From contig OZ241917.1 of the NCBI GenBank assembly GCA_965203805.1, positions 1,856,001 to 1,920,000 of the forward strand: a stretch of 64,000 nt of DNA, read 5' to 3'. The notes below the pieces were generated by a model. The model was given only the letters and a program-made list of their open reading frames with translations. It made no database searches and had not been told where the DNA came from. This DNA is from Candidatus Latescibacterota bacterium. Its GTDB lineage: Bacteria; Latescibacterota; UBA2968; GCA-2709665. A program made the translations under genes and the position numbers. Shown in pieces: positions 4,457 to 64,000 of this stretch (positions are counted from its first letter, which is position 1; every line of letters starts with the position of its first letter).

Positions 4457-4538
4457 TCGCGCCTTTCCGTTACCCCTTTTTTCGATCCGCGACCGAGAAA
4501 AAACAGCACGTGAGCGGTGCGCTCCTTACACGACGGAG

Positions 4539-44737: not shown

Positions 44738-47700
44738 TCAGGCTGAGCGGATACGCAAATAGGCTCGAGGAATCATACAAATGGGTACCACGATAACCAG
44801 CAGAGCCGATGAGACAACCAGCCCTCCGGACGTACCTATCGCGAGGGTGTACCATATTTCGGACCGATCGCCATGCAGCATTAGCGGGAGAAAACCCGCA
44901 ACGGTGGTCAGTGTTGTGATAAAGATCGGTCGCAACCGCTGGAATGCGGCCCGGACAACAGCGTCAATGGGAGACGACGGTCTCGCCTTCAATGTACGAG
45001 AAATATTATGGACCAGCAGAATGGCGTTGTTCACTGAAATGCCCATCAGAAGCAATAGGGAGGCGTAACCGCCCTTGTTAAAGGACGCACCGAACAGGTA
45101 AATCCCAGCTCCGACCCCGATGAGGGCCAGCGGCAATGCAATCAATACGAGGATCGGCCGCGTCCATGACTCGAACAGAGCAGACGTGATCATCCACACA
45201 AGTAGCACTGAAAGCAATACAATGAAAACCAGTTCCTTTTTTCCGTCTTCGGTAAGGTCCCTCCGCATATAACCCTTGTTCAGGCTGTAACCGTAAGGCA
45301 AGTCCGTTTTTGCTATCAGATCTTCAACTAACTTTTCGGAATAGTTGAAGTCTGCAAGGACGGTAAAACCAACCTCTTTGACGTAGCGCTGGTTGTCGCG
45401 TTCGATTGTCGGCCTCGCATACTGCTTTTCCAGATGGCTGATGTGGCCGATCCGCGCGGCGTATCCCTCCAGCAAAACATGCCTAAGTTGACGGAGGTCC
45501 GTGCCGCCCTCCGCTTTCGCCGAGATGGCTGCCGGTACTTCCCGTCCGTCCAATGACATGCGCTGAATGGAAGAACCCTCATCCAGGCGGGCTTGTATTT
45601 CATCCACAACCATGGCGTGATCAACACCCAAGGGGGAGGTTCTCGTATGGTCAATCCGTGCCAGAATTTCATACCTTGGCGGACCGTAAGTGCGGTCGAC
45701 CTGAATGTCGCGTACTCTCCGCGATCGGCGCTCCTTCAAGCGCTCTGCAATTCCTTCCGCAATATCTCCCACATTCCGCAGGTTGTAGCCCTGTACCTCC
45801 AGTTGTCTGTTCACGCCACTAGCGCCCAGAGGCTTACCCGCCGGATCAATGTCCTGGCCCCATACACGGAATCCCACGCCGCCGATATTGCCGCCATAAA
45901 CGACCAAGTGTTCATAAAGCAAATAGGGAATGGCCGACCGTTTATATTCATCCTTCAGCCGGATCTGAATGAGTCCGTACCTCCCCGAACTCTGTGTGAT
46001 GATGCCACTGATGACGGAGGAGAAACTGAGAAGCTGCTTCTCGATCCCCTTAAAGATCCCATCCAGCCGACTGATGTGCGCATTGAAGGGCATCTCAAGA
46101 AACACGATGAGGGAGAATCCTTCCGCAATTTCCCTCATGATATGCCTGTGCGGCGCTCCGTCAACCCGGTGGTCTACGTCTTTGAACAGATAGTAGGTTG
46201 CGCCCCCGAGAATCAGATTCAGAGTTGGTCTCAGGAATAAGGCTGTTGGATTGCCCCAGACGTTGTTGTAGAGTCGTGCGGACCCTTCCGAAAGACGTCT
46301 CCACGGCGAGCGAGGTGTTTGTTCTTGTTCGTCTGTCACGCGGCTGTAATTGTCTGATGCGGCCATTGTGTCCCTGCTGGCGAGCCAATCTGTGTATTCC
46401 TGCCGCGTCGCGACCATTCCGGTTGATGCGTACTCATTTGGCCGATTCGCTTGGCGCTGGCCGACTTGCTCCGGGAGGAGCCAAATTGGAAAGCCCACCA
46501 TCCATGCCAAGAGTGCCAGTATCAATACCCTTTGTCGGCCACACATGCCCAGGGTCCGCTGATATAGACGAAACATCGGATCAACGCTCCGAACAGCAGA
46601 TTCCTGCTGGAGCACCGACCGGTAGAAAAACGTGGGAATCAGGACCAGTGCAATTAGGAGGGAAAGCAGGAGGGTTAAACCTAATGATACAACAAGAGGT
46701 TTGAAATACTGCTGCAGGTCTTCCGATAGAAAGAGAACCGGCAAAAAAGCGCCAATGGTCGTCAGATTCGAAGCCGCGACCGGGTACATAACTCCGCGCA
46801 ACCCTTGAGCCACTGCCTGTTTCAAGTTGACGTCGGTAGCACGCTCGTCTGCGCTACGCCGGACGTAATCGTATACGACAATAGCATTGTCTACACAAAC
46901 CCCGAAACCGATGGTAAAACCAGCCAATGTCACCAGGTTCAGGTGCAAACCAAACAAAAAAAACAGGCTCAGGGCCCCAAGTACGGACAATAGGACAGAA
47001 GCAAGAATCAGGATCACAGAATGAAAGCGCCTGAATACCCCCGCCAACACCAGACATATGAGCAACATAGAGACGGCTGAACGTCGGAGCAGGAACCGCA
47101 GCTCCGCATGTATTTCGGCGCCTGCGTCATTTAGTACGATGATCTCGATACCATCCGGCATTTGCCCGGACAAATCAGAGATCTTTTCCCGAACCCGCCC
47201 GGAGGTGCGAATCATATCGCTTCCGTGCGCTCGCTCAATCCGGACGGCCACTGCGTTTCGTCCATTAATTCGGAACACGGATTCGGGATCACGGTGCCGG
47301 TACCGCACATCGGCCACGTCGCCCAGCGGGATGGCACGGGCCATTCCGGCGCCCGGCAGAGGAATCCGTCTGATCTCATCCAAGTTCTCAAAACCGCTCT
47401 TCAACTGGATGCGGCTAATGGCCCCGTGCGTCTCTGTCGCGTCTAAGGAACGAGTTTGCATTCCTCGGGCGGCCAAGGCGACCCTCAACCGATTCATATC
47501 AATACCTCTGCTCCGAGCAAGGTCCTGATCCAACTCGATCATGACGCCTCGTTCGCCTCCGCCCTGTACCGAGACGGCTCTGACCCCGGGGATAGCCAAC
47601 AGCGGCAGACGAACCCGCTCTCGAACCAGGCTCCGCAGTTCCGAGGCATCCGCTTGACCGTGTACAAAGCAGACGAAAAAATCCCTTAATTCTCTGCGAA

Positions 47701-48106
47701 GACTTGGGGCCGACCGACGAACGACAGGCCACGAGACACGCTCCGGTCTCTCGCGGAAGAAGGTATAGATCCGTTCTTTGATTTCCAGTTCCGCTCGTTC
47801 AATGTCTACCGAACGTGCAAATTCAGCGACGACACTTGCACCACCCTCGCGGGTTGATGAGCGTATTGTAGCCACATCCCTCACGCCACGTACAAGCGAC
47901 TCGACCGGGGCTGTGAGCCGGGACTCGATCGTAAGTGCAGACGCACCGGGCCACGATATGCTTATTGTGAGTTGTGACGCATCTGCTTCTTCACCTATAT
48001 CGATAGGGATTAGAGGAAAACACATCATTCCAATGGCAAAAATCGCTCCGCAGGCAACCCCCACGGCAACCGGCCGATCCAGCATCTGGTGCGCCAATCC
48101 CCGCAT
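44738..48106 (-). CDS. RND efflux permease (AcrB/AcrD/AcrF family), subunit 2
   Basis: WPGAS...IE..LT.PVE, VDNAIVV, VNNAILLV and RLRPIFITTLTT. Confidence 0.92.
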   Translation of the reverse strand: MRGLAHQMLDRPVAVGVACGAIFAIGMMCFPLIPIDIGEEADASQLTISISWPGASALTIESRLTAPVESLVRGVRDVATIRSSTREGGASVVAEFARSVDIERAELEIKERIYTFFRERPERVSWPVVRRSAPSLRRELRDFFVCFVHGQADASELRSLVRERVRLPLLAIPGVRAVSVQGGGERGVMIELDQDLARSRGIDMNRLRVALAARGMQTRSLDATETHGAISRIQLKSGFENLDEIRRIPLPGAGMARAIPLGDVADVRYRHRDPESVFRINGRNAVAVRIERAHGSDMIRTSGRVREKISDLSGQMPDGIEIIVLNDAGAEIHAELRFLLRRSAVSMLLICLVLAGVFRRFHSVILILASVLLSVLGALSLFFLFGLHLNLVTLAGFTIGFGVCVDNAIVVYDYVRRSADERATDVNLKQAVAQGLRGVMYPVAASNLTTIGAFLPVLFLSEDLQQYFKPLVVSLGLTLLLSLLIALVLIPTFFYRSVLQQESAVRSVDPMFRLYQRTLGMCGRQRVLILALLAWMVGFPIWLLPEQVGQRQANRPNEYASTGMVATRQEYTDWLASRDTMAASDNYSRVTDEQEQTPRSPWRRLSEGSARLYNNVWGNPTALFLRPTLNLILGGATYYLFKDVDHRVDGAPHRHIMREIAEGFSLIVFLEMPFNAHISRLDGIFKGIEKQLLSFSSVISGIITQSSGRYGLIQIRLKDEYKRSAIPYLLYEHLVVYGGNIGGVGFRVWGQDIDPAGKPLGASGVNRQLEVQGYNLRNVGDIAEGIAERLKERRSRRVRDIQVDRTYGPPRYEILARIDHTRTSPLGVDHAMVVDEIQARLDEGSSIQRMSLDGREVPAAISAKAEGGTDLRQLRHVLLEGYAARIGHISHLEKQYARPTIERDNQRYVKEVGFTVLADFNYSEKLVEDLIAKTDLPYGYSLNKGYMRRDLTEDGKKELVFIVLLSVLLVWMITSALFESWTRPILVLIALPLALIGVGAGIYLFGASFNKGGYASLLLLMGISVNNAILLVHNISRTLKARPSSPIDAVVRAAFQRLRPIFITTLTTVAGFLPLMLHGDRSEIWYTLAIGTSGGLVVSSALLVIVVPICMIPRAYLRIRSA

Positions 48107-48108
48107 CT

Positions 48109-51100
48109 TCAGTTCTTCTTCCTGACCAATACAGCGTAGATGATGGGTACGAAAACCAAGGTTCCCAGCGTTGCCAGAGAAATACCGCCCACGATAGCCC
48201 AGGCCAGAGGACGCCGCAGTTCCGCCCCGCTGCCGCTGGACAGGGCCATAGGCAGCAAACCGCATACCGTTGTCATCGTTGTCATACAGATGGGGCGAAA
48301 ACGCTTCCGCCCTGCGTCCAGAATCGCCAGCTGAAGGTCGCCGCTTGTCTGAACACGATGGTGGATGAAGTCCACCTTGACAATAGCGTCGTTCACAACG
48401 ATTCCCACCAGCACGATGCAGCCCAATAGGGACATCACGTTTAGTGTATTTCCCGTCAGCCAGAGGGTCGTCACAACCCCCGTGGATGCCAGTGGGACCG
48501 TCGTGATAATGACAAGCGGAACCATAAGTGATTCGAACTGGGCGGCAAGGATGAAATACACCAGTATTAGCGATATCGCAAGAATCGAGAGGATGTTCCG
48601 GTATTGCTCAAACATGTGCGCGTATTGGGAGCCGCTCTCAATCCAATATCCATTTGGGAGGCCGATCTTGTCCACTATCCGGGCAACCAAATCACGTGCC
48701 TGGTCTCGATGAATCTCATGTAATCCGGCCGTAATGGTGACGGTACGTGCTTGTTCCTGGCGATGGATCTCCTCAAAGTCTTCAGCGGGTTCGAGATGAA
48801 TCAGTTCAGAAAGAGGCACGTGAATGACACGGCCACGTTTACGTACGGGGTATTTGATGGTCAAGATGCGCTTCAGGTCAAGGTTGCCGCGGCCTTCCGC
48901 GAGCACCCGAATGTCGATCTGCTCGACAAAATCGACAAACCGGGTAGGAATACTACCGTCAAGATGCCGCTCGATAAAAAGGGAAAGTTTCTCGGGACGG
49001 ACACCGTATATGATAGCGGCGTCGCGGTCCACACGTACACTATAAGCCCGCCTTCCTTGCGTCAGATCGGATTGCACATTGACAAAGCTCGGTGACTGCC
49101 GCATGAATTCGCAGATTCGTCGACTCAATGCAGCCAGCGTATCCAAGTCAGAACCCACAATCTTGACGTCGAACTGTGCCTGCTGAACTTGAAACAAGTG
49201 TTCAAAGACTGATTCCGGCCGAGAGAGCGTGAGGGTCAGCCCTCCGAATTCAGTGAATGCGCCCTCGAGTCGACGCGCTACCTCCACTCCCGCGGCGTCT
49301 TTCGTCAGTTCTATATCTAGAAGTGCCTTATTCAGACCCGGCTGATACCTACCGTCCATAGCCTCCCGTGTGATTCCCACCGATGCCAGAACTGACTCAA
49401 CGCCACGCTCCGTTAAAACGCGTTTCTCCAGGCGGGTAACTTGCGCCGAAGTCGTCGTCAAACTCGCATCCTGCGGCAATTCGACCTGAACGATCAGACG
49501 TTTCCTGTCCACATCCGGCATCAGTTCCCTGTCCATCTTCAGCGCCATCCAACCGCTTACCGGAAGCGGAAAAACCGCTACGCAGATCACCTTCCATCGG
49601 TGGCGAAGTGCTATCGACAGGGCCCTTTCGTAAATTGCGAAAACACCGGCGACAATACGTTGAAAGAGTTCAATAGACCGCACGAACGGGATCAAGCCTA
49701 TGGATGCATATCGATATACAAGACGAAACCGGCCTCTGTTGACGCGCTCTGGCTTCCACTGCCGGGAAGCAAGCATCGGTAGCAGCGTAATCGACACTAA
49801 TAGGGAGGCTGCCAGCGCTAAGGAGATTGTTACGGCCTGCTCGAAGAAGAGCACTCCCGCCATTCCTTTGATGTACACCAGCGGCAAAAAAACCGACATT
49901 GTGGTAAACGTAGAGGCGGTAATCGCTAACCCGACTTCGTTGGTGCCTCTGACGGAAGCTTCTCGAGAATCGGCCTGAAGCTCCCGATGGCGAAAGATGT
50001 TTTCCAAAACCACGATAGAGTTGTCGACCAGTATCCCAATACCCAGAGCCAGTCCACCCAGCGAAATCACATTCAAATGAATATCTAGGAAGTACATACA
50101 GATGAAAGTCGCAATGATCGACACCGGAATGGAGAGACCGATGATGATTGGGTTTCTCAAGTCCCTGAGAAACAGCACAAGCGAAACAAAAGCGAAGAGT
50201 CCGCCGAGGTAAAGGGACTGCAGCACATTGTCTACGGATTCCCGTATGAACTCTGCCTGATCGAATAGCGGCTGCACCTCAAAATCAGGATAATCCCGAG
50301 AAAACCGGTAGAGATCGCCGTAGACTTTTTCCGACGTATCCACCGTGTTGGAACCCGCCTCCTTGAAGAGATGCAGGGTGATTACCTCGCTGCCGTTCAA
50401 ACGTGTATACCCTCTCCGGTCAGTGAAACCCTTCTCAATGCGGGCGACATCCTTGAGGCGAATCTGTTTGGGCTCATGTCGGACCGGAATACGCCCCATC
50501 TCGTCAATGCGGGTGAACTCCGCCTGAATTCGGAGGGGAAACCGTGAATACCCTTCACGGACCGCTCCACCAAAGCTAACCACATTGAATTGTTTCAGGC
50601 TACTTTCCACGTCCTCAAAGCTAACTCCATATCGCCTGCATTTTTCCGTGTCGAGGTAGACTCGAATCTCTCGCTCCTGGCCTCCTACGACCTGCACATA
50701 GGCAACACCGTCGATCTGTTCAAGGCGACGCTTGACAACGGACTCCGACACCTCCTTTAATTCCATCAGGGCTTCGTTGTAGTCCTGACGCGACCGAGGA
50801 CGTTCAATTCGCGACCCAGTAACGATTAACGTCATGATTGGGGCTGAGGCGGGATCAAAGCGCAATATAGTTGGACGTCCTGCGGCCTGCGGAAGCATTC
50901 CCTGGTCCAAGCTGCTTCGAACCTGAACGAATGCCAGATCCATGTCGCTTCCCCAGCGAAACGACACATCCACAAAGGAAAGGCCCTCACGGGAAACCGA
51001 ACGGATTCTGTGCACTTTGCTCACTGCGCTCAGAACGGCTTCGAGAGGGCGAGTGACGTATTCTTCCACGTCACGAGCGTTCATCGTGGGACACTCGGTT

Positions 51101-51243
51101 CGCACGATAAGTCTTGGTACATCGATATCGGGAAGGAAGTCCACACTCAGCCGGAAGAGTGAATAAACGCCAAGCAGAATAACGCCAAGAAAGCAAACAG
51201 TGGTGGCTACCGGCCGGTTGACCACAACGCGCACAATTCGCAT
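48109..51243 (-). CDS. RND efflux permease (AcrB/AcrD/AcrF family), subunit 1
   Basis: RPVAT, GILVDNSIVVLENI, GIVVNDAI and RFRPICMTTMTT. Confidence 0.93.
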   Translation of the reverse strand: MRIVRVVVNRPVATTVCFLGVILLGVYSLFRLSVDFLPDIDVPRLIVRTECPTMNARDVEEYVTRPLEAVLSAVSKVHRIRSVSREGLSFVDVSFRWGSDMDLAFVQVRSSLDQGMLPQAAGRPTILRFDPASAPIMTLIVTGSRIERPRSRQDYNEALMELKEVSESVVKRRLEQIDGVAYVQVVGGQEREIRVYLDTEKCRRYGVSFEDVESSLKQFNVVSFGGAVREGYSRFPLRIQAEFTRIDEMGRIPVRHEPKQIRLKDVARIEKGFTDRRGYTRLNGSEVITLHLFKEAGSNTVDTSEKVYGDLYRFSRDYPDFEVQPLFDQAEFIRESVDNVLQSLYLGGLFAFVSLVLFLRDLRNPIIIGLSIPVSIIATFICMYFLDIHLNVISLGGLALGIGILVDNSIVVLENIFRHRELQADSREASVRGTNEVGLAITASTFTTMSVFLPLVYIKGMAGVLFFEQAVTISLALAASLLVSITLLPMLASRQWKPERVNRGRFRLVYRYASIGLIPFVRSIELFQRIVAGVFAIYERALSIALRHRWKVICVAVFPLPVSGWMALKMDRELMPDVDRKRLIVQVELPQDASLTTTSAQVTRLEKRVLTERGVESVLASVGITREAMDGRYQPGLNKALLDIELTKDAAGVEVARRLEGAFTEFGGLTLTLSRPESVFEHLFQVQQAQFDVKIVGSDLDTLAALSRRICEFMRQSPSFVNVQSDLTQGRRAYSVRVDRDAAIIYGVRPEKLSLFIERHLDGSIPTRFVDFVEQIDIRVLAEGRGNLDLKRILTIKYPVRKRGRVIHVPLSELIHLEPAEDFEEIHRQEQARTVTITAGLHEIHRDQARDLVARIVDKIGLPNGYWIESGSQYAHMFEQYRNILSILAISLILVYFILAAQFESLMVPLVIITTVPLASTGVVTTLWLTGNTLNVMSLLGCIVLVGIVVNDAIVKVDFIHHRVQTSGDLQLAILDAGRKRFRPICMTTMTTVCGLLPMALSSGSGAELRRPLAWAIVGGISLATLGTLVFVPIIYAVLVRKKN

Positions 51244-51255
51244 AAGCGCCAAGCC

Positions 51256-52413
51256 TCAGCGTTGAACCACAATGACGCTGGCGTCGTGGGCGAGATTAAA
51301 ATGTCCCGATACGATCAATTCTTCGCCTTCTATGAGACCTTCTTCAATTTCGATTAATTCGTCGTTCTCCAACCCAGTTCTTACGTAACGCCATTTTGCC
51401 AAACCACCCTCATGTACGAAAATCAGCTTCCGGTCGTCACGGACAAGCAGAGCATCCCTGGGAACGAGTAGGCGCTTCCTGAACACACGGGTTTCAACAT
51501 CGACTTTGGCGAACATACCTGGCTTGATCCTGTGTTCGGGGTTGTCGATCCAGATTTGAATGTCACACATACCGCTTTCAGAGTCAACCACCGGGTTAAT
51601 CACTCGAATCGTTCCGCCGAACTTCTCGCCCGAAAAAGCGTGGAGACGTATTGATACGGGGGCGCCAACCCTCGCCAACGGCAACTCTCTCTCAAGGATA
51701 CCGACTTCAAGTGTCAGGGAATCGAGCCCTACCAGCCGCATTAAATCCTGGCCTTGCGCGACCGTACCGCCATTACCGATTTCCAGGTCGGTCACATACG
51801 CGTTGAAACGGGCTCTGATGACTGTATTGTCTACCTTTAGTTTCGCCTCTGCGACATCCAGTCTTGCCCGCGTAAGGCCCGTACTGCTGGCAAGCCACGC
51901 CTTGCGCGAGTTCTCCGACGCCAGCGCCAAGGCATCCATATCGTCAACATTGGCACTGTCGACCGTCTCTTCCATTTCCTTCTTTAAACGTCCGCCCCTG
52001 TCCAAGTGGTTTCCCACAAGGGCTAGGGCGGCATATTCACGCAATGCACGGGTCATCTGATCCTTCGCCTTCATATAAGCGATACGATAGGGTTCGCCGT
52101 CGATCTCAATTACAATGTCGCCCTCGCGGACAAAACTACCCTCCCCGACATGCAAACGATGTACCTGTCCGGAGACCCGGGCGACGACACGCGTCTCGAT
52201 ACGAGGCCTGAAAACTCCTTCCGAAGAGATTCTTCTCACGAGATCCCGTTTACGGACCGTCTCCACCACGACTGGCGTATTCGGAGACTCGAATTCGGGA
52301 AACGCGTCCAGTGCTTTGTCTCGCGAAGTCGCGGATGGATTGAGGGCATTCCAAACCACAAACCCCACGGTTCCAAGCCCAAACCCCAGCACAATATAAA
52401 ATAGACGTTTCAC
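51256..52413 (-). CDS. RND periplasmic adaptor (membrane fusion protein)
   Basis: N-terminal TM, VSGQV..LHVGEG..V..GD, IRARF, KPGMFA and V.TG motifs. Confidence 0.9.
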   Translation of the reverse strand: MKRLFYIVLGFGLGTVGFVVWNALNPSATSRDKALDAFPEFESPNTPVVVETVRKRDLVRRISSEGVFRPRIETRVVARVSGQVHRLHVGEGSFVREGDIVIEIDGEPYRIAYMKAKDQMTRALREYAALALVGNHLDRGGRLKKEMEETVDSANVDDMDALALASENSRKAWLASSTGLTRARLDVAEAKLKVDNTVIRARFNAYVTDLEIGNGGTVAQGQDLMRLVGLDSLTLEVGILERELPLARVGAPVSIRLHAFSGEKFGGTIRVINPVVDSESGMCDIQIWIDNPEHRIKPGMFAKVDVETRVFRKRLLVPRDALLVRDDRKLIFVHEGGLAKWRYVRTGLENDELIEIEEGLIEGEELIVSGHFNLAHDASVIVVQR

Positions 52414-52866
52414 TGTTTCGACACCCGTACGCGTCGCATAGCGGTTAACCTTTGCAGACAAAGAAGGACACGGTTTTCGTAGGTTCAATGTCAGTCAAAA
52501 ACCATTGATAGAGAGCCGCGAATGTGTCAAGTGGAGAGTTTCGCGACGACAATGTAACGGCGCATCGAACCTTTATTCGTCACTCTTCAGCAAACCAGAA
52601 TCGGACTCTTTCAGAAGTTTAAGTGCGAAATGAGAACCAAGAAGCCCGCAATCCCAAGTACACCTGCGATATCTAGTCCGAATTGAGAAATAACACTTCC
52701 GACGTATCGAAGAGTTGATGGCAATCCCCATCAGCCGTCTCTTTGACCAGATTCGCAGTATCAGAAAAAAGTCCCCGAATACTCCAATAGTCGAGCATTC
52801 GAAGACAACGGGATATTCAACAGGCGGATTTATGTGGTACTAATTCATTCTCCGGTCAGTCTTATA

Positions 52867-53874
52867 TCATTCCGACGGTTCCCAATGATTGCATATTAAC
52901 TCCAGGTCGTGCAATGCAGCCTCTTCGAGGTTTGCGATTTCCAAAAGACGTTTGTTAAGTTTTTCTAATGTCGGTATCAAGGCTCTTTTTTGGGCAATAT
53001 AACAGAGGTTTCGGAATACAAGCCATTTTTGGGAAATCGTCTTGAATTGCCTCGCCAACTGACACAAACGACGATCTCGCAACGAGACCGCCCCGAATTC
53101 CAGAAATTTCGCGTGACCCTCACGCTCGGGGATTACCATCTGAGTTTGTCGGAAAACCTGATCTAGTAGCTTACGTGCATTCTCCTGCTTGAGCCATTTC
53201 CAGTGTTCCAAGTCGTTAGCGAGTGATCGCAGACCCGTCAACCCGAAACAGGTACCAGGTACGTGGAAACTGTCGCCATGCATAAATTGGATATTCTTAT
53301 TAATCGATCGTATAGTCTCGTCGGACGTCAGGTTCCAACGGGGTTCCGAACATTTGATTTCCAGCCACGTAAATCTTGGGATTTCATTTGATCCCCAGGC
53401 TTCCGTCAATCCGGAGATCGGCAGACTTCCTCGGAACAACTTAGTTGGCGATGGATCTACAATATGTACCATGTCCATTTCGTCGTCGTACCCAGCAAGA
53501 ATAACGGCGTGAGATGAATGATGGCCTAGTCCCGGATAGTAGTAACGTTCTAGATAATACGTGTCGGCTACCGCCGGTACCGGAACGCCCTCATCTATTC
53601 GCGACTTAGCGCATTTCCAGGCAGTTTCACCATCTCGTTCGTGATGCACTGTTACATGAATACCACATTGTCTTAATCTCGTCTGAAAATGAGTGATACG
53701 TGGACTAATTTTCACTTCTGAACTGCCTTCCAGTTGGTATGAGAAATACCACTCGTCGTGCAATACGGTGGCAGTCGTGTACCCAAAAAACTGCAACATT
53801 ACATCTAATGCCACATAATCACAGGGATACGAATCGCAATCGCAGAAAGGAATTCCGGATATAAGTCGTCCCAT
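52867..53874 (-). CDS. BtrH-like protein (BtrH_N papain/C39-like fold; putative ACP-dependent acyltransferase)
   Basis: N-terminal Cys (YPCD), PV...D.YYL..Y...H..H...LAGYD, and a helical C-terminus (GL.GL..LA...ER..HA.FL...LE). Confidence 0.7.
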   Translation of the reverse strand: MGRLISGIPFCDCDSYPCDYVALDVMLQFFGYTTATVLHDEWYFSYQLEGSSEVKISPRITHFQTRLRQCGIHVTVHHERDGETAWKCAKSRIDEGVPVPAVADTYYLERYYYPGLGHHSSHAVILAGYDDEMDMVHIVDPSPTKLFRGSLPISGLTEAWGSNEIPRFTWLEIKCSEPRWNLTSDETIRSINKNIQFMHGDSFHVPGTCFGLTGLRSLANDLEHWKWLKQENARKLLDQVFRQTQMVIPEREGHAKFLEFGAVSLRDRRLCQLARQFKTISQKWLVFRNLCYIAQKRALIPTLEKLNKRLLEIANLEEAALHDLELICNHWEPSE

Positions 53875-55780: not shown

Positions 55781-55819
55781 TTTCTGTCTCCTTTCCGACC
55801 GAAGGATACACGATGTGGA

Positions 55820-55859
55820 CAGACAGGAATGTCCGCCCCACCTGCAGACCGGATTCCTC
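55820..55859 (+). repeat. 40-bp direct repeat, copy 2, upstream of the Kelch gene
   Basis: CAGACAGGAATGTCCGCCCCACCTGCAGACCGGATTCCTC. Confidence 0.85.
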
Positions 55860-56393
55860 TGCATGACGGTTCCGCGCAGGCGGCGGACATCCTGCTTCTC
55901 AGGTGTCGCCGCGTGTAAATAGCGCAGAGATGATCCCATGCTGCAGTAGATCCTTCGTCGGCCTGGGGACCCTTCGACGGGCTCGCTTCGACAGGCCACT
56001 TCGGCAAGCTCAGTGCAAGCAGCACAAGCAGGGCAAGTCCTCTGGATGACAGCCGGAAGCTTCGTGCTCGTGTAACCAGGTTGATCAAACCTTCCTAAAC
56101 ACCATCTCTTAAACGGATTTCGCCAATGTTGTTAAAAATGAGGTGCCGGTTTGTAATCCGGTGTCTTCGGACAAATGGGAAACGGTCGCCTGAGATGGTT
56201 TAATTAAACTGGGAGAAACTGTCACATGCCGCTGATCTTACGTTTGATCAAATCAAAAACGAACACGATTTACAGCGATTGGAAAAACAACTGATGACGA
56301 GACATCCTCCCAATATCATCTTCATGGTATGTGAAGATCAATAGGGTGCGATTGTCTAAAATCCAACATTTCCGCTAGATGACAAAGCCCAAT

Positions 56394-56657
56394 TTAGCTG
56401 CTCGCCAATTTACCGGACACATAACGAACCATAGAATTCACAGAATCGAAGAGGTCGACGCGTAATTCTTCGTCATCCACCTCAATTCCAAACTCCTGTT
56501 CAAGAGCAAAGATGATTTCTAGTGCGGCAATCGAGTCAACTCCCACGCCCTCGAAAAGCAACTCATCATCGGCAATGTCGTTAGGGTCAATACTCAGGCG
56601 GAGTGACTGGACGATCGCAGATTTTACACGCTGTCCAATGAGCGTCAATTCTTCCAT
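56394..56657 (-). CDS. Acyl carrier protein
   Basis: 87 aa, acidic; GVDSIAALE phosphopantetheine-Ser motif; LEQEFGIEV; overlaps the upstream stop. Confidence 0.9.
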   Translation of the reverse strand: MEELTLIGQRVKSAIVQSLRLSIDPNDIADDELLFEGVGVDSIAALEIIFALEQEFGIEVDDEELRVDLFDSVNSMVRYVSGKLASS

Positions 56658-58561
56658 CCGTTTTTCTTGTCCTCGGTAAAGTGATTGATTGCCACATCAA
56701 CCGCCTTTTGAATACCCTCTGCCGACGAAATACATATGGCGGGTAATCCAAAAGACCGTTCCAATTGTCCCAACTTACAGGCTACTTCGGCTTGAGTCAG
56801 CGGTCGCGGTCTTATCGACGTTCGACCATACCTAGCCTGCACTCCCTTTTCAAAGTCTGACGTGGCTAGCAACAATGTGGGCGCGTGACAAAATGCGCGA
56901 ATGCCGTTGACCGTGTCCTGAATATAGTCTTCGGGATCGACACTGTTTACCACCAATATGCAAGCATCAGGCTTCACACCCATTAAAAAAGCAATGGTGG
57001 GCAGCGTCAAAGTATGCTTGTCGCATACGTCATAGGGAACCGTTCCGGATTGGGTACCGACCAAAATGAGATGAGGTCGCGTTTGGTAGCAAATCTCGCG
57101 CATCTTCGCATCGAGAAACGGAATATAGTATTCAGTCGGAATTCGAACAGAGGGTGCGTAGCCCATTGGAAACCCATAATCCATGCCGAATAGCTCGGAA
57201 TGATGTTCAGTCCCAATCTGTGCAATCCGAAACCCTAGTTCTAGCAATCTTCGCCGGAACGCTAATTGAAGAGAAAATTTACCCTGTTGCGAACTCGTAC
57301 CTACTATAGCCAAAACCGGTACATCCACTTCGGGGATCGATGAGCATCCATCGATTGTACGGCTCGCCTCTTCAAACGACAGCTCAGGATAATACAGTCT
57401 CAATCCTTTAGAAGCAGCGACTTCATGCAAGTCACCGTACTCCGCGTGAGGTAGTGCAAGTAGGCTGAACACGTTTACTTCATTATCGAGTGCGACCTGA
57501 ACGCACTTTCTAAGGAAATCGCTCTTACGGATTCGACTCAATTCATCAACGTAACCAAGAATCAGAGTGTCTGCATGCTCCAGACACGCCGACAGCCGGG
57601 ATGTGATCCGGAGACCCTTATTACACAGGCCGATTGCTTCCCCTGCATCGCTGCCGACCAATCCCTTTCCGACAGGATCGGATATGCCCACGACCTGAAA
57701 GCCCAATAGGTCATTCGCACGAACTACGGCGTGCATTTCCTTATTATACGGGTAGAGGCAGGCCTTGCGTATCCACGAGAAGCGATCCTCTGCAGCAGAC
57801 GGGACCTTGATGGATGACGCAGGGTTTGTTACGAGAGGAGGCGCCGTTTCGGATACTGCGTGGTTACTCAGAATCTCACGGATCTGTTGCAAGCAGGCAC
57901 CAGGGTAAGCCTGCCGGATTAGCGCGATCAGACCGGTTATATGTGGCGCAGCGAAACTGGTACCGCCCATCATTATTTCCTTCGGCTCCAACCAACACAC
58001 CCGTTGGGGGTCGCCGCGCGCAATGCACTCAATCGGTCGACCGGCGCGATAATAGTAGTCGTACGGGCCAAGCAACGCACCCGAACCGACACCAATGACG
58101 TCGGCTAACAACGCAGGATACGAGTCACGTCCCTCGTTATTTGCGGATGCTACCAAAAGAGTACCAACGCTGACTGCATTGCGACAGACGTTTGCCAACT
58201 CGTCACGATAAGCGATATCCGTTGTTCCCAAGCTTAGATTTACAATGTCGATTCCGTGCGCAACTGTCCATTCGATGGCCGCTATGAGCAGTCGTGGTTC
58301 CGTCGACAAGGATTCGTCAAAAACTCGGATACTATAAATTGAGGCGTCCATCGCTTTCCGCCGGATAATACCTGCACAGGCCGTTCCGTGACCCACGCAG
58401 TCTTCAAAATCAGAACCATAGATTAAATCCCCTGCTTTACCGACTGATATAGAAACCCCGCCTGTCAACGGACCAACCTTCGGGTGGTCCGGCACGATGC
58501 CACTATCTATAACTGCGACGGCAACGCCGCGTCCGGTCAAGTTTGAAAACGGAAAACTCAT
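56645..58561 (-). CDS. S8 (subtilisin) peptidase fused to a DUF1611-like P-loop domain
   Basis: Triad VAVIDSG / HGTACAG / GTSFAAPH, no signal peptide; C-terminal half has GTSSQQGKFS, GTE and VGTQSG. Confidence 0.8.
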   Translation of the reverse strand: MSFPFSNLTGRGVAVAVIDSGIVPDHPKVGPLTGGVSISVGKAGDLIYGSDFEDCVGHGTACAGIIRRKAMDASIYSIRVFDESLSTEPRLLIAAIEWTVAHGIDIVNLSLGTTDIAYRDELANVCRNAVSVGTLLVASANNEGRDSYPALLADVIGVGSGALLGPYDYYYRAGRPIECIARGDPQRVCWLEPKEIMMGGTSFAAPHITGLIALIRQAYPGACLQQIREILSNHAVSETAPPLVTNPASSIKVPSAAEDRFSWIRKACLYPYNKEMHAVVRANDLLGFQVVGISDPVGKGLVGSDAGEAIGLCNKGLRITSRLSACLEHADTLILGYVDELSRIRKSDFLRKCVQVALDNEVNVFSLLALPHAEYGDLHEVAASKGLRLYYPELSFEEASRTIDGCSSIPEVDVPVLAIVGTSSQQGKFSLQLAFRRRLLELGFRIAQIGTEHHSELFGMDYGFPMGYAPSVRIPTEYYIPFLDAKMREICYQTRPHLILVGTQSGTVPYDVCDKHTLTLPTIAFLMGVKPDACILVVNSVDPEDYIQDTVNGIRAFCHAPTLLLATSDFEKGVQARYGRTSIRPRPLTQAEVACKLGQLERSFGLPAICISSAEGIQKAVDVAINHFTEDKKNGWKN

Positions 58562-58672: not shown

Positions 58673-59164
58673 CTAACCTCCGTCATCGGTCTCGGTTGCC
58701 ACCGGAAATCCCGCCTCGGCCCACAACGGCCATCCACCGGAAAGCACCCTGACGTTTGCATATGTGAATTCTCGTGCGAGGCGCCGCGCTACATCATAGC
58801 TACTCATACATGTAGCATTTGCACAGTAGACGATAATATCGGTATCCGCCGGATAAGGCTCAAGCACACGATGCAATTCGGAAGTCGAATAGTGATATGA
58901 CAGACGGACAGCACCCGGAATATGCCCACCATTAAATGCCTCAGCCGAGCGAGCATCTACAAATAACGCTGCTCCCCTGTCATATTGGTGCTTAGCTTCA
59001 ACTAAATCCAATGTCCCAATAGCCTGTTCTTCTAAAGTGCCGACATTTGCAAGAGGAAGTCCAGCCACCGTCCGCCGGGCATAAAACCACTCGGTCAATT
59101 GAAGGACGGCACAATACATCACAATTAATATGAATACCAGTGAAACTATAACCCATCGCCACAC
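58673..59164 (-). CDS. Membrane-anchored rhodanese-like protein
   Basis: N-terminal TM; FVDARS..F..GHIPGA; YCANATC; LSGGW..W..AGFP. Confidence 0.85.
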   Translation of the reverse strand: MWRWVIVSLVFILIVMYCAVLQLTEWFYARRTVAGLPLANVGTLEEQAIGTLDLVEAKHQYDRGAALFVDARSAEAFNGGHIPGAVRLSYHYSTSELHRVLEPYPADTDIIVYCANATCMSSYDVARRLAREFTYANVRVLSGGWPLWAEAGFPVATETDDGG

Positions 59165-59385: not shown

Positions 59386-61068
59386 TTAATTGCGTGCCGT
59401 TGAAAAAAAACTGTTTAAGAAACTTTGTTTCTGGAGCAACGCCTGAGGTTGACCCTGTTCAACTACGGTGCCGTTATCAATGCAGATCACTTCATCCACA
59501 TTTCGGACGACGTTTAGTCTATGACTGATAACTAGGATTGTCTTTCCAGCAAATATCCGTCGGACATTTCGAAGAATCGTGTGTTCATTTTGGGGATCCA
59601 AAGCTGCGGTCGCTTCGTCCATGATTAGCAACTCCGCAGGATTCAACAGGGCTCTAGCAATTGCAAGCCGTTGTCGTTGCCCACCCGACATCTGTACTCC
59701 TTGCTCTCCTATAGTTTCATGTTGATTCAGATCGTTCAGACCAACCATCTCCATGACGCGGTCGATTTCTGATGAGTTATACCGAGCCGATCCGTACCGG
59801 ATATTCTCGCCGACGCTATCGTGAAATAGGTGGACTCGTTGGCTAACCAAACTGATATTTCGCCTCAAGTCCGACAGTTCGAATTCTCGCATTTGAACAT
59901 TGTCAATGTTGATGCAACCTCGATCGGGAAGATGAAGCCCACAAAGCAAATTGGCAATCGTCGACTTTCCACTTCCACTCGCACCTACCAAAGCATACGA
60001 TTTCCCTTTTGCCATACTAAATTTCACTCCTCGAAGTACTGTCTGACTCTCAAAACTAAAATAAACATCTTGAAGGTCAATCTGCCTCCCGAAGGTAAAC
60101 TGTTTTCGTCCAGCAAAAAAACCAACCTCCGAGGGAATCTGCATAAACTCCAACACGCGACGCATGGAAACCAACCCTCGAACGAGCCCAATGTACATAT
60201 CGTGCAGGTTCCGGACTGGCTGGAAAAGACGTACCGAGTACTGTAGGAAGGCAACTAGAGCGCCAAGCGACATGACGTCTTGCATAACCTGATACGCTCC
60301 GAATCCCATAATGAAGAGGGGGGTTAACGCGGCCAACCCTCCTGACACACTATTCATTGAGGCATAGTACAGGACATTGCGCATGATTAATTCAATTAGA
60401 TCATCCGACATAAAACGAAATCTATCGGTTTCTCGCCTCGAACTATTCGTAAGTTTAATTAATGAGACGTTTTTAAATCGTTCAATTACGTAGCTGGAAA
60501 TGTCGGACCCCTTTTTCTGAATCTTTTCGATATTCCGTCTAATCCTAGGCTGAAAATAGGTCAGATTTAATACAAACAACGGGACGCCGATTACAGTCAG
60601 CAAAAAAAGGGAGGCATTTAGCCACATCAGCAATACGATCAGCCCAATCAAAGTCAGGACACTGTGGATCGAGTGCAACGCGCTGGAAGTCAGCATCGAC
60701 TCAATCACTGCCACATCACTATTGAGCCGGTAGACCAAATCTCCTGTCTTTCGATTGTCAAGTGAGCTTATCGGTAAATCCAACAACTTACGAAACATCC
60801 GCACTCGCATATCCCGAACAATGCGATTACTGCACCACGCGTAGAGGTAGTTTGATGCGAAAGACAAGATCATATTAGTTAACATCAAACCGCAGAGAAG
60901 TCCGATCGCGACTAGAAGAGTGGTATATTGTTTGGCTGGAATTATGTCATCGATAATCGTCTTCGTAATGTACGGTGGAGCTAAGGAAACCGCAGTGGTA
61001 AGGACAAGACAGATCACAACGATTAATCCCTTAAAGCGGTAGGGATTCAGGAATTTGGCAAATCGCAC
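59386..61068 (-). CDS. ABC exporter, fused permease and ATPase (no C39 domain)
   Basis: 6-TM domain, GASGSGKST, MSGGQRQR, MDEATAALD and ISHR. Confidence 0.93.
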   Translation of the reverse strand: MRFAKFLNPYRFKGLIVVICLVLTTAVSLAPPYITKTIIDDIIPAKQYTTLLVAIGLLCGLMLTNMILSFASNYLYAWCSNRIVRDMRVRMFRKLLDLPISSLDNRKTGDLVYRLNSDVAVIESMLTSSALHSIHSVLTLIGLIVLLMWLNASLFLLTVIGVPLFVLNLTYFQPRIRRNIEKIQKKGSDISSYVIERFKNVSLIKLTNSSRRETDRFRFMSDDLIELIMRNVLYYASMNSVSGGLAALTPLFIMGFGAYQVMQDVMSLGALVAFLQYSVRLFQPVRNLHDMYIGLVRGLVSMRRVLEFMQIPSEVGFFAGRKQFTFGRQIDLQDVYFSFESQTVLRGVKFSMAKGKSYALVGASGSGKSTIANLLCGLHLPDRGCINIDNVQMREFELSDLRRNISLVSQRVHLFHDSVGENIRYGSARYNSSEIDRVMEMVGLNDLNQHETIGEQGVQMSGGQRQRLAIARALLNPAELLIMDEATAALDPQNEHTILRNVRRIFAGKTILVISHRLNVVRNVDEVICIDNGTVVEQGQPQALLQKQSFLNSFFSTARN

Positions 61069-61107: not shown

Positions 61108-61800
61108 CTAAAAGGGATCACTGAGGACACCGCGCCCCTTGATAAACTCCAATAGAGACATACCGTGCATTTCTTTCAAGGGTGAATCAGCGAAACCCTC
61201 AACATTAATCTCAAAAGCAGGCATATGATTGTAAACAAGATCAACGAAGAACAAGGATGTGAATTGCTCCGCTTGGATTAGAGGAAGGTGGCATCGAATT
61301 ATCCTGTTTTCTGGACTGACAAGAAAAACCACAGGAGTTCGCACGAACAACCCATCGGAATCCTCTGGTTCTAGCGGAACACCTAACTGAAACGTCAACC
61401 TGAAGGCTCGCTTAAATTTAGTCAATTCTGATTGATCCCCATTTGAAATGGCGTAAATCGGCATCTCTAAGGAGTCCTTTAGGTTGTCGTGGATGTGTTG
61501 CAGCGCCCGTAATATTAGATTGATGCAAGGTTGGCACGAATTCGGCGAAAACAAAAACACCAAGCCGGTCTTTGATCCTGAAAAGTCAGTACTTACCGTA
61601 TCATTGCCAGTCGTGCGAATTGACAATTTTGGAAATCCGCGACCGACTATCAGATCCTGCCGGTAGGTATTGACCACAAACGTGCGGTAAAACCGTAGAT
61701 CGGTGAGATGTAATCTGAATAACCAGGCGAGGGAGACGACTAGACCAATTAGGAAAAGCAGATTCGATACTACCAATAATCTCGTTATCCGCATAGTCAT
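61108..61800 (-). CDS. Membrane-anchored thioredoxin-fold (redoxin-like) protein
   Basis: N-terminal TM; FLFSPNSCQPC (CxxC); TP.VFLV cis-Pro motif. Confidence 0.7.
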   Translation of the reverse strand: MTMRITRLLVVSNLLFLIGLVVSLAWLFRLHLTDLRFYRTFVVNTYRQDLIVGRGFPKLSIRTTGNDTVSTDFSGSKTGLVFLFSPNSCQPCINLILRALQHIHDNLKDSLEMPIYAISNGDQSELTKFKRAFRLTFQLGVPLEPEDSDGLFVRTPVVFLVSPENRIIRCHLPLIQAEQFTSLFFVDLVYNHMPAFEINVEGFADSPLKEMHGMSLLEFIKGRGVLSDPF

Positions 61801-62239
61801 ACCGAAACTTTACAACAACCGTCGTTGCAGTCCATAGAGGTTATTGTAGTTTCTCGAATGAATTCTGTACGGTTCAAAACCACCGAATCCCCCGGGTAGG
61901 GTATTTGTCGCACTCCATATTTTACATCCTTATAATCTTATAAATTCGGCAATATCCAGCTTCTCGGAATCCAATCAAATGGACTGCCACAACGCGCGGA
62001 CTGTCTATTGAATTCCAAAAAAAATAGAAGCACTTTCCATTCCAGTAAGGCCTCCATTGAACTCCTGATTCTGGTCTTCGCACCTTCGGAAGATGTGGAG
62101 CTAAACCCACTATCAGCAGGGAATCTGCACTGAATTGCTCCCCAATCAAATACGACGAACGCGTCTAATACCACTGAATGCATCAGCCCCATTTGCAAAG
62201 AATCCTTGGAACCCGCGCCAGAATACGGATCCGATCCGC

Positions 62240-62590
62240 CAACTGAACGCACTGCGACAGGTCCGCTTTCAAGCCAACCGACGTCTACTGGACGTCCAAA
62301 GCATCAGCCACGACTGGACCGTCGGCGAAGATGCCTTCCAAAAGCTCTAACAGCCGCAACAAATCGACGGCCAACGGGTATGTGCCCTACGCTTCGGCGG
62401 CCGTCGCACACAGATGCTCTTGCGGGCACTGGTCATCTTCCGAACGCAGGCGCGCATCCTAAGATCCGGACTCACCCTCGACAAGACCACGCCAAACCAC
62501 CTACGCAGCGCATTCGACAGACTCGAAACTTTGATCGACCAACATTGCGATCATGCCAAACTCGCTGCTTGAAGCTTGACTCAAACACCA
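62240..62590 (+). pseudogene. Degenerate transposase-like fragment
   Basis: Frame reads LRQVRFQANRRLLDVQSISHD...GEDAF..*..DGQRV.ALRFG...AFDRL...KLAA* with an internal stop; resembles a widespread mobile-element protein C-terminus (from memory). Confidence 0.5.
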
Positions 62591-62659
62591 CAAAAACCGC
62601 CGACTAAGCAGGCTAGGGCTGCAGAAAGAATGCGCCAACCCAAGCTATTGCCACTGGCT

Positions 62660-62800
62660 CTCTGTGCTCTTTGCGCTGGATGAAGCCTTCCCCAAACACG
62701 ACATCAACCCCGCTGGCCGCGTAAGATCGAAGCGATTTCCCAGCCGCACACTGGCGACAACCAATCCCATAGAATCCACGTTCACCACCGCAGCAGAGGG
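62660..62800 (+). pseudogene. IS256-family transposase fragment
   Basis: DFPAAHWR and TNPIESTF in adjacent frames, the same motifs as in the IS256 at 43 kb. Confidence 0.6.
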
Positions 62801-62912
62801 ATTCTTCGATCCAATAAACAGCACCAATATCATACGTTTAACGTAATTACCGAAGTTAACGAAAGACCGAAATACGGATCCGATCCACCATTTCAGTCAA
62901 CGAGAGTAATAC

Positions 62913-63134
62913 CTAAATGTTATACCATTCCGACCAATAGGTATCTCCCGAATTACAAAGGGCAACTTCGATCTCATTCGAGGCATTGCAAGAATAGTGG
63001 TCTCTCCGCTGCAACTGACCATTGTGGCACCTTTTTTCGAACCCGTCATTGAACCATTGATATCCATCGTACCATTCGTACGCGTATATCAATGTATCCT
63101 GTCGACGGTTCCGTGGTTTTCGTAGCAAGTTCAT
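62913..63134 (-). CDS. 73-aa putative RiPP precursor peptide
   Basis: Strong RBS AAGGGAGG before ATG 63134; basic leader-like MNLLRKPRNRRQDTLIYAY, then a Trp/Tyr/Asn/Cys-rich core. Confidence 0.7.
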   Translation of the reverse strand: MNLLRKPRNRRQDTLIYAYEWYDGYQWFNDGFEKRCHNGQLQRRDHYSCNASNEIEVALCNSGDTYWSEWYNI

Positions 63135-63204
63135 GTTGCCTCCCTTCTGAGAGTTTGAGAATTGGTGGATCGGAATCCGTAGTTTCGGCAAATCGCAAAG
63201 CAAA

Positions 63205-63397
63205 CCTTGATTCCTCATTTTTCGAGGACGTTTATTTGAATTTGTGTCAGTCAGTTAAAAAGGCGATTAGACTGCTGATTACCAGGATACAACAGGACAC
63301 TGTACGTGAACGGAAGAAATGTCCTTCCTTAAGACCATTTCGGCACCATTCGGAGAGTTCCGTCGCGTCGCCGCGTTGCGATTTTATCGGATCGAGG
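63205..63397. mobile_element. 193-bp MITE with IS1380-type ends, copy B
   Basis: CAAA|CCTTGATTC ... TATCGGATCGAGG|CTAA; shares AAAGGCGATTAGAC, GGATACA, ACGTGAA and TCGCGTCGCCGCGTTGC with copy A. Confidence 0.8.
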
Positions 63398-63447: not shown

Positions 63448-64000
63448 CTAGTTATTTGCACCAAAGTCAAGCGCATAGACCGCCACATTGCCATTGGAAT
63501 TTTCCGACTCTGCTGCCGACGGCTCACTCCATACATACAACTGATCCCGCGAAGATGCTATACTATTCCACGGGAGCGATATAACTTCGGATTCGAGGTG
63601 CTCCTTTGCTGACCTACTAAAGTCATAGACTCTGACGGCCTCTTCTGTGTCGAGGTCGTAAATCGACCAGTTGGTAATACTTGCGACGGTCGTGTCCTCG
63701 GTCGTGCCAGGGTTTATGTGCGAAACTATCAAAAAACGACCATGGACGATTGTCATGCTACGTACAGTTGTCATTTTCAATCCTCTCATATCTTCACGAC
63801 TCCCTTGTTCAATTCCATGATACCTTGTCGGCAACGGTACATATCCTTTCGGACGACGACCAAATCGCCTGATGGTTTTCCCAGTCTCGGCGTCGATTTC
63901 TCTAACCATGTAGTCGTTTGGTCCCAGGAAATACAGCCTATTCCGTACCACGCTGTAGCATAGATGCGCAAAGGCTTTCATGCGATATGAGATAAACCTC
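63448..64000 (-). CDS. Probable beta-propeller protein (5' end outside the window)
   Basis: Frame is open to the window edge; short beta-strand blades (RLYF...Y.VREID..TG..IRRFG, WSIYDLD, QLYV). Confidence 0.55.
   Translation of the reverse strand, partial: RFISYRMKAFAHLCYSVVRNRLYFLGPNDYMVREIDAETGKTIRRFGRRPKGYVPLPTRYHGIEQGSREDMRGLKMTTVRSMTIVHGRFLIVSHINPGTTEDTTVASITNWSIYDLDTEEAVRVYDFSRSAKEHLESEVISLPWNSIASSRDQLYVWSEPSAAESENSNGNVAVYALDFGANN

Follow-up and report, generated by a model that had tools for sequence, protein, structure and literature searches.

A leader-bearing peptide gene beside a subtilisin-TIGR04066 fusion gene in Candidatus Latescibacterota: a member of an unnamed family of putative precursors

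The peptide gene

We analysed a stretch of 64,000 nucleotides (hereafter the window) from the genome of a Candidatus Latescibacterota bacterium (assembly GCA_965203805.1, contig OZ241917.1, positions 1,856,001 to 1,920,000; genome G000 below). Close to the end of the window lies, on the minus strand, a small open reading frame (ORF) which is likely to be a functional gene for an exported peptide with a leader, belonging to an unnamed Candidatus Latescibacterota family and processed along the lines set out below. Its parts are the following.

62913..63134, minus strand: precursor peptide gene, 73 amino acids plus stop (from translation, orthologue and family)
63078-63134, minus strand: leader, codons 1-19, MNLLRKPRNRRQDTLIYAY
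62916-63077, minus strand: core, codons 20-73
63139-63144, minus strand: Shine-Dalgarno sequence GGGAGG, 4 nt 5' of the ATG (read from the sequence)

A precursor peptide had been proposed here from the letters of the window, with no strand given. The 73 residues quoted in that original prediction are the exact translation of the reverse complement of 62913-63134, the gene thus being on the minus strand, and the composition is the one described, with four Trp, three Cys (in CHNG, CNAS and CNSG) and a terminal EWYNI. The tandem aromatic repeat seen in the core also exists (EWYDGY and QWFNDGF), but in two imperfect copies only. Moreover, the Gly of the second unit's DG[YF] is found in G000 alone, and is replaced by Lys (G31K) in genome G002, of the same genus, and in all four of the strain contigs described below. 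A longer reading of 101 amino acids, starting from the ATG at 63218, was rejected, as it has no ribosome site and its start is not shared by the relatives. AAAGGAG-type ribosome sites precede the relatives' ORFs at the position equivalent to that of the GGGAGG.

A word-indexed search of 5.8 billion proteins returned an orthologue in G002 with 96% identity. This is the sole strong match among 60 related genomes, that is, in one of the 14 other genomes of the genus. The G000 and G002 loci are collinear; the interior of the ORF shows six base differences and no indel, and the intergenic flanks differ by two indels, one of 4 bp (63246-63249) and one of 474 bp (61883-62356, missing from G002). The frame is unbroken in all six strain-level copies (G000, G002 and contigs from four public runs). 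Among the four strain contigs we counted nine variable sites, all in the core, corresponding to eight residue-altering changes and two silent ones (N29 silent, G31K, L41F, N50D, S52T, N53S/T and N61D). No variant was seen in the 57 bases of the leader, nor at any Cys or Trp. The runs that contain this stretch include sponge- and marine-labelled metagenomes.

Could the ORF be non-functional, either a chance frame or a decayed fragment? The peptide has no match in Pfam or NCBIfam and no usable one in the Protein Atlas, no RNA run is among the 24 runs listed for the locus, and most of the strain differences alter an amino acid, all of which would suit such an ORF. Yet it has a strong ribosome site, a frame that is intact in every strain-level copy, a leader that is identical across strains, and a place in a 75-member family which holds its position within a conserved cluster (see below). 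Furthermore, all profile matches are 62-84 amino acids long and align from residue 1, which shows that the ORF is not part of some longer gene, decayed or otherwise. Taken with the strain data, this makes a non-functional ORF extremely improbable.

The peptide family

The family table that we compiled holds 75 distinct members, and the basic leader ending in A-Y, predicted from the single sequence, recurs throughout it. Indeed, the leader is 19 amino acids long in 69 of the 75 members, and the leader-core junction is A-Y in 70 of them (T-Y in four, G-Y in one), usually followed by x-x-E, Glu being the third core residue in 64. On average over the 75 members, leaders hold 4.0 basic and 0.7 acidic residues, and cores 11.7 acidic versus 3.2 basic residues. 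The cores are hypervariable, between members as well as between strains. Their aromatic fraction averages 14% and reaches 26% at most, so that the G000 and G002 peptides, with 20%, stand near the top. The number of Cys is even in 68 of the 75 members, 51 having four. Three Cys are found in just four members, two of which are the G000 peptide and its G002 orthologue. The odd count, which the original prediction had taken to suggest a modification other than simple disulfides, thus departs from the family norm. The motif C-x-x-G-D is present in 12 of 38 tabulated members.

The original prediction had named, as a refuting condition, the lack of leader-conserved homologues near similar clusters. 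Homologues of this kind, their leader conserved and their core variable, do lie next to similar clusters. A profile built on 17 members retrieved 22 proteins from the 5.8-billion set, for which the only source annotation is "hypothetical protein", with no family name, and an exhaustive scan of 1.84 billion representatives gave 45 cluster representatives (50% identity) of 62-84 amino acids. Sixty-one loci encoding a relative of the S8-TIGR04066 fusion protein described in the next section were collected. At E<=0.01, a hidden Markov model (HMM) of the leader detects at least one member in 14 of these 61 loci, and a pattern scan places a class with longer cores in seven further ones. With its conserved leader, its variable core and a neighbouring S8 protease domain and ATP-binding cassette (ABC) exporter, the G000 peptide has the attributes of a precursor of the bacteriocin type, or of a ribosomally synthesised and post-translationally modified peptide.

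The members of the long-core class (119-140 amino acids; L043 7149-7559, L051, L052, L055, L071, L085 and L065) lie beside more distant S8-TIGR04066 loci. Their leaders read MKIVKLHKPQR...V[IL]AY and are followed by an acidic stretch; Cys are few, and CPQCLPH terminates two of the seven cores. The peptide of locus L037 (1639-1866) has a related leader, which ends in HAY, but a hydrophobic, membrane-like core; this combination suggests that cargo of very different types passes through the leader and protease system. Weak tblastn matches of the G000 peptide in other genera (E 0.009-1) were judged to be noise; several of them have two in-frame TGA. In loci L013-L018 (genomes G032, G035, G039, G044, G047 and G053), weak matches (E 0.05-0.2) fall in frames of 59-87 amino acids, each with two in-frame TGA. 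These frames recur in several genomes of another genus, and may be either noise or a conserved small frame.

The conserved cluster

The peptide gene is accompanied in the window by the following genes.

63448..64000, minus strand: NHL-type six-bladed beta-propeller, secreted, 407 amino acids, 3' part in the window (Pfam DUF5128/TolB_like)
61108..61800, minus strand: thioredoxin-fold protein, membrane-anchored, with CQPC (AhpC-TSA, E 6.7e-5)
59386..61068, minus strand: ABC exporter, permease plus ATPase, without a peptidase domain (ABC_membrane 4.6e-47, ABC_tran 2.4e-34)
58673..59164, minus strand: single-domain rhodanese, membrane-anchored, active-site loop C-x4-C (Rhodanese 1.1e-17)
56645..58561, minus strand: S8-TIGR04066/DUF1611 fusion, 638 amino acids (Peptidase_S8 8e-28, DUF1611 2.9e-9)
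56394..56657, minus strand: acyl carrier protein (ACP) with a DSI phosphopantetheine site (PP-binding 8e-12)
52867..53874, minus strand: BtrH-like papain-fold protein, acyltransferase- or peptidase-like (BtrH_N 4.6e-12, DUF4872, Peptidase_C39_2)
51256..52488, minus strand: periplasmic adaptor of the resistance-nodulation-division (RND)/HlyD type (domain models; syntenic in 9 of 11 close loci)
44738..51252, minus strand: two RND permease genes, 48109-51252 and 44738-48265 (multidrug-type RND models; syntenic in close loci)

The 61 loci related to the fusion protein come from public genomes, nearly all of them labelled Candidatus Latescibacterota, and up to six S8-TIGR04066 loci are found on one chromosome. 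The 11 closest loci share one gene order: propeller, small ORF, CXXC protein, ABC exporter, rhodanese, fusion, ACP, BtrH-like protein, HlyD, RND. The family peptide gene always adjoins the S8-TIGR04066/DUF1611 fusion, the ACP and the ABC exporter. In close relatives, a PAS histidine kinase and a LuxR-type response regulator, sometimes with a GNAT gene, lie directly upstream.

In the fusion protein, residues 1 to about 260 form a subtilisin domain in which Asp19, His58 and the Ser of GTSFAAP are present; it has no signal peptide and no prodomain, and its best NCBIfam model is QhpE (7.6e-42, below the cut-off). Residues about 262-638 form the TIGR04066/DUF1611 domain (TIGR04066 E 3.8e-30). In a Foldseek search, the AlphaFold2 model of this domain (confidence score, pLDDT, 87) matched TM0796 (2g0t; E 4e-15, TM-score 0.65) and the N-acetyltransferase DgcN (7xrj; E 5e-13). 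The BtrH-like protein matches the model of the DarH acyltransferase at 5.7e-8 and is syntenic in 10 of the 11 close loci. The ABC exporter resembles MsbA, HlyB and bacteriocin exporters. All eight aligned homologues of the thioredoxin-fold protein keep SCQPC and a hydrophobic anchor at the N-terminus, and all six aligned homologues of the rhodanese keep its Cys loop. The idea of a heavy-metal pump, with a metal-binding peptide, was taken from the HlyD and RND genes and dropped, since the permeases score best on multidrug-type models.

The propeller gene, which precedes the peptide gene, extends beyond the window; in the extended locus L009 its full length is 3448-4671. The N-terminus of the protein is signal-like. 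Its AlphaFold2 model (pLDDT 82) gave as top Foldseek matches BF0058 (4raa, an exported Bacteroides protein) and NHL domains, with a peptide-amidating lyase and a streptogramin lyase lower on the list. The peptide and propeller genes are co-duplicated in tandem in three loci (L069, L029 and L075). A complex prediction of the propeller (residues 55-407) with the core (20-73) gave no answer (score 0.00, no controls) and counts neither way. The propeller homologues of L030 and L031 start with a lipoprotein-type signal (a hydrophobic stretch, then G-C); the propeller-type partner may therefore be lipid-anchored in part of the family.

Within the cluster, a Kelch-repeat gene on the same strand (54647-55999) falls outside the conserved synteny, the relatives having an unrelated gene of 214 amino acids at this place. 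The genome holds nine or more further paralogues of the Kelch-repeat gene, mostly at about 3.96-4.00 Mb of G000:C1 and with up to 89% identity.

The upstream radical SAM gene

The original prediction had read the WYD, WFN and WYN triplets of the core as substrates of a triceptide enzyme, that is, a cyclophane-forming radical S-adenosylmethionine (SAM) enzyme which would crosslink the aromatic rings, and had proposed searching upstream for a radical SAM gene. One is present beyond the end of the window, but it is of the CteB/QhpD-like thioether type and belongs to a separate module.

L009 5159-6766 (outside the window), same strand as the peptide gene: radical SAM/SPASM enzyme, two genes upstream of the peptide gene
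L009 6658-6876 (G000:C1:1922658-1922876), minus strand: ORF of 72 amino acids with an AAGGAGG site, directly upstream of the radical SAM gene

While every model score of this enzyme is below the curated cut-off, the best ones are those of the SCIFF maturase (247 bits, 2.5e-73), the nif11-type enzymes (2.8e-72) and PapB (9.7e-71), and the QhpD model is matched over nearly its full length (1.6e-67). CcpM (TIGR04068) gives 151 bits for a cut-off of 500, less than five other models. The cyclophane models YhhB and FxsB give only 75 bits (cut-off 445) and 61 bits (cut-off 370), respectively. The closest solved relative is CteB (5wgg, E 6e-58), its N-terminal domain included.

The triceptide reading has in its favour the presence of the three triplets in a core that is 20% aromatic, and of a radical SAM/SPASM enzyme nearby. 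The aromatic-x-x motif shared with the triceptides is a weak criterion in a core of this composition. Aromatic richness is a feature of the whole family, clusters devoid of a radical SAM gene included, and the second repeat unit differs even among strains (G31K). The cluster contains no cyclophane-type radical SAM gene, the sole such enzyme nearby scoring far better on thioether than on cyclophane models and having a likely substrate of its own. This enzyme comes with its own module, and a radical SAM gene is lacking in 55 of the 61 related loci. The triceptide reading is therefore unsupported, and appears highly improbable.

Another alternative is a thioether reading. In a ranthipeptide, the upstream enzyme would also link the three Cys of the G000 peptide to the beta or gamma carbons of Asp, Glu or Asn, for example C60 to D64 (CNSGD) and C49 to E54 (CNASNE), the QhpE-like S8 domain then removing the leader. 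The model scores and the CteB match point to this chemistry, and QhpE is the top model of the protease domain. The gene of the enzyme has the same orientation and stands two genes further upstream; a terminator scan from the radical SAM gene to the peptide gene gave nothing convincing. In addition, the peptide carries one Cys-X3-Asp (CNSGD), the motif that PapB requires according to a review (PMC8172795). Finally, the G000 and G002 peptides, which are among the four three-Cys members, come from the sole Latescibacterota loci with a radical SAM gene beside a family peptide.

The radical SAM gene, on the other hand, has a conserved upstream ORF and a sigma-54 activator of its own. The long ORF call of the enzyme is overextended, its first 45 or so residues overlapping the 72-amino-acid ORF in another frame, and the latter sits downstream of a gene for a Ser/Thr-kinase/sigma-54 activator of 1628 amino acids. 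Six copies of this three-gene module (a sigma-54 activator of about 1620 amino acids, an ORF of 67-75 amino acids and the radical SAM gene) are spread over four genomes of the genus. Four of these copies lie away from any S8-TIGR04066 cluster, and only those of G000 and G002 adjoin one. The small ORFs of the module share N14, G21, P32 and the block C-x-W-P-x-F-x-x-L-P-P-P (VC-x-WP-x-F-x-x-LPPP in the 72-amino-acid ORF). They have no Pfam or NCBIfam match, and seven relatives in the indexed protein set. The sequence TGGYAC-N5-TTGC, which resembles a sigma-54 promoter, precedes them in all six upstream regions, four being caught by the pattern search. A sigma-54 pattern scan of L009 allowing two mismatches gave 15 matches versus 14.5 expected, and is therefore uninformative when taken alone.

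The distribution of the enzyme points in the same direction. An ORF of at least 200 amino acids with CxxxCxxC is absent from 55 of the 61 related loci. In the six others, four such ORFs are on the cluster strand, in G002 and in three Bacteroidetes/Firmicutes loci. C-x-x-G-D is found in 12 of 38 members, yet just G002 among the 61 loci pairs a radical SAM gene with a family peptide; since the motif occurs in loci devoid of this gene, it is independent of that enzyme. The neighbouring enzyme is closest to the clade of the freyrasin (PapA/PapB) and thermocellin (CteA/CteB) enzymes. Freyrasin is described with six Cys-X3-Asp repeats (PMC8172795, PMC8326336), whereas the G000 peptide has one. The present system also differs from the ranthipeptides in that its enzyme is preceded by an ORF of its own and turns up without the cluster.

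Because the three-gene module recurs independently of the cluster, the radical SAM enzyme most likely serves the 72-amino-acid ORF, and it is probably not the dedicated maturase of the 73-amino-acid peptide. A thioether-linked G000 peptide is thus conceivable but rather unlikely. Taken by itself, the three-gene module probably constitutes a radical SAM peptide system that has not been described before.

Relation to known systems

Two known maturation systems invite comparison. In the maturation of the gamma subunit of quinohemoprotein amine dehydrogenase, the reference set comprises the QhpC peptide, the radical SAM enzyme QhpD and the subtilisin QhpE. QhpF is the ABC exporter, and the name QhpG belongs to the same system. 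The likeness lies in the QhpE-like protease, the QhpD-like radical SAM enzyme, the ABC exporter, and a peptide carrying Cys, Trp, Asp and Glu. However, no genes for dehydrogenase subunits or for a flavoprotein were seen in the cluster, and both enzyme scores are below the cut-off. The G000 peptide, in addition, comes from a hypervariable multi-copy family, and is therefore a poor fit to an enzyme subunit such as QhpC.

The other system is that of the CLI_3235-type precursors, whose leaders the peptide had been said to resemble. This likeness stands at the level of the system, where a TIGR04066 domain is found beside an ACP, but it fails for the peptide. Indeed, TIGR04065 matches neither the peptide (E<=0.1) nor any of 17 relatives (E<=10), with the limit that the candidate precursor of the Firmicutes locus L083 did not match either, so that the test has no positive control. 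In the report on Paenibacillus polymyxa SacP23, the cluster is described as encoding a CLI_3235 precursor, an ABC transporter, a TIGR04068 radical SAM enzyme, a TIGR04066 protein, an ACP-related TIGR04069 protein and a subtilisin (PMC10731318). The same report states that the whole cluster, placed in B. subtilis, yielded an antimicrobial peptide with a blocked amino terminus, not open to Edman degradation, and that its 19-residue leader was a SignalP guess doubted by the authors themselves (PMC10731318).

In the SacP23 cluster as in the present one, the precursor is short and consists of a basic leader, about 19 residues long, and of a core that contains Cys, and both place TIGR04066/DUF1611 beside a small carrier, a subtilisin-type leader protease and an ABC exporter. 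They differ in that TIGR04066 and S8 are fused in the present cluster, the TIGR04066 match being below the cut-off, and in that the carrier resembles a generic ACP and not TIGR04069. CcpM is lacking here, as is any radical SAM gene in 55 of the 61 related loci. The present cluster has extra conserved genes (the CXXC thioredoxin-like protein, rhodanese, NHL propeller, BtrH-like protein and HlyD/RND), and its host is a diderm of an uncultured phylum. Because the precursor, carrier and radical SAM model tests failed, the cluster is, as judged from sequence matches, a distant variant or relative of the CLI_3235/TIGR04066 maturation system and not a member of it.

Features of bacteriocin loci, in which structural and immunity genes are paired and a two-component regulator is present, are also found: the peptide and propeller genes duplicate together, and in close relatives the PAS histidine kinase and LuxR-type regulator genes lie directly upstream. 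The presumed partner is, however, a secreted NHL propeller of 400 amino acids instead of a small membrane immunity protein.

Maturation and function

How would the peptide be processed? The cytoplasmic subtilisin domain would first bind the leader and cut after A18-Y19. The core would then cross the inner membrane through the ABC exporter. There, the membrane-anchored CXXC protein and the rhodanese would oxidise, or otherwise handle, the cysteines of the core, before passage of the outer membrane by means of the HlyD/RND pump. The propeller would be the peptide-specific partner, whether for immunity, as a receptor or in processing; such a specific role is proposed because the propeller and peptide genes duplicate together. 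The most likely modification of the peptide is the formation of disulfides; N-acylation and thioethers are possible. As for its role, the mature peptide would most likely be bacteriocin-like or serve in signalling.

With lower confidence, an acyl group would perhaps be added, at the amino terminus freed by the cleavage, by the DUF1611 domain with the ACP and the BtrH-like transferase. This speculative step is suggested by three features, namely the DgcN-like fold predicted for DUF1611, the neighbouring ACP and the BtrH-like transferase. In its full form, the proposal is that the S8-DUF1611 fusion, with its dedicated ACP and the BtrH-like transferase, cleaves the leader and caps the N-terminus with an acyl or aminoacyl group borne by the ACP; we hold this to be no better than a tentative and doubtful reading. 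As part of the same doubtful whole, the transfer itself might be catalysed either by the domain with the N-acyltransferase fold or by the BtrH-like enzyme.

Several observations weigh against the processing route that we favour. The cleavage after A-Y is one that we infer from conservation, and the acylation step is a guess; in the literature searched on CLI_3235-type systems and on ranthipeptides, we found no title or abstract dealing with the role of TIGR04066. The TIGR04066 match of the fusion reaches 105 bits for a curated cut-off of 200, and the ACP matches TIGR04069 with 14 bits (cut-off 70, E 0.048), generic ACP models being better. Three Cys do not allow full disulfide pairing inside one chain; the G000 peptide therefore cannot complete its intrachain pairing, unlike the 68 of 75 relatives with an even number. 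The remaining 40 of the 61 related loci have no member detected by the leader HMM or by the pattern scan, although some of these loci end early and further leader classes may exist. Finally, the RNA-free set of runs, the single CNSGD motif, the lack of a convincing terminator and the thioether-type radical SAM gene, which is found two genes upstream on the same strand in G000 and G002 only, have to be counted on this side.

Even so, the exported, leader-bearing peptide remains the reading that we retain as likely. It defines an unannotated family of precursor peptides, which forms 45 clusters at 50% identity, is covered by neither Pfam nor NCBIfam, and is served by a maturation cluster that is multi-copy within one uncultured phylum. 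This cluster retains the least understood parts of the CLI_3235 systems, the TIGR04066 protein and the carrier, and drops the radical SAM enzyme; it therefore offers a clean setting in which to ask what those parts do. The finding also calls for caution in deducing chemistry from a radical SAM gene close by, which here is part of a distinct module of three genes that includes a candidate substrate. If the leader were indeed cleaved and the new N-terminus acylated, acidic peptides capped at the N-terminus and locked by disulfides would be made without any radical SAM enzyme. The same scheme would then account for the TIGR04066/TIGR04069 pair of the CLI_3235 systems and for the blocked amino terminus reported for SacP23.

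The flanking spacers

Two intergenic segments flank the peptide gene.

61801..62912, unstranded: spacer of 1.1 kb without a recognisable gene (61883-62356 missing from G002)
63203..63380, unstranded: one copy of a short dispersed repeat, within the 313 bp that separate the propeller and peptide genes (blastn)

When the 1.1-kb spacer was compared by blastx with every ORF of the related loci, a single weak match appeared (E 0.02), and blastn found no genome repeat. Rfam has no match between 61000 and 64000, a segment which covers this spacer as well as the dispersed repeat. The G+C content of the 1.1-kb spacer is 0.55-0.57, versus about 0.45. The dispersed repeat shows no significant fold, and the RNA fold of the region upstream of the peptide gene (z -0.36) indicates no structure. 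The repeat has 45 further blastn matches in the G000 genome, of 24-177 bp, in both orientations and with 79-100% identity, and in four metagenome runs the contig depth at this repeat is up to 60-fold higher.

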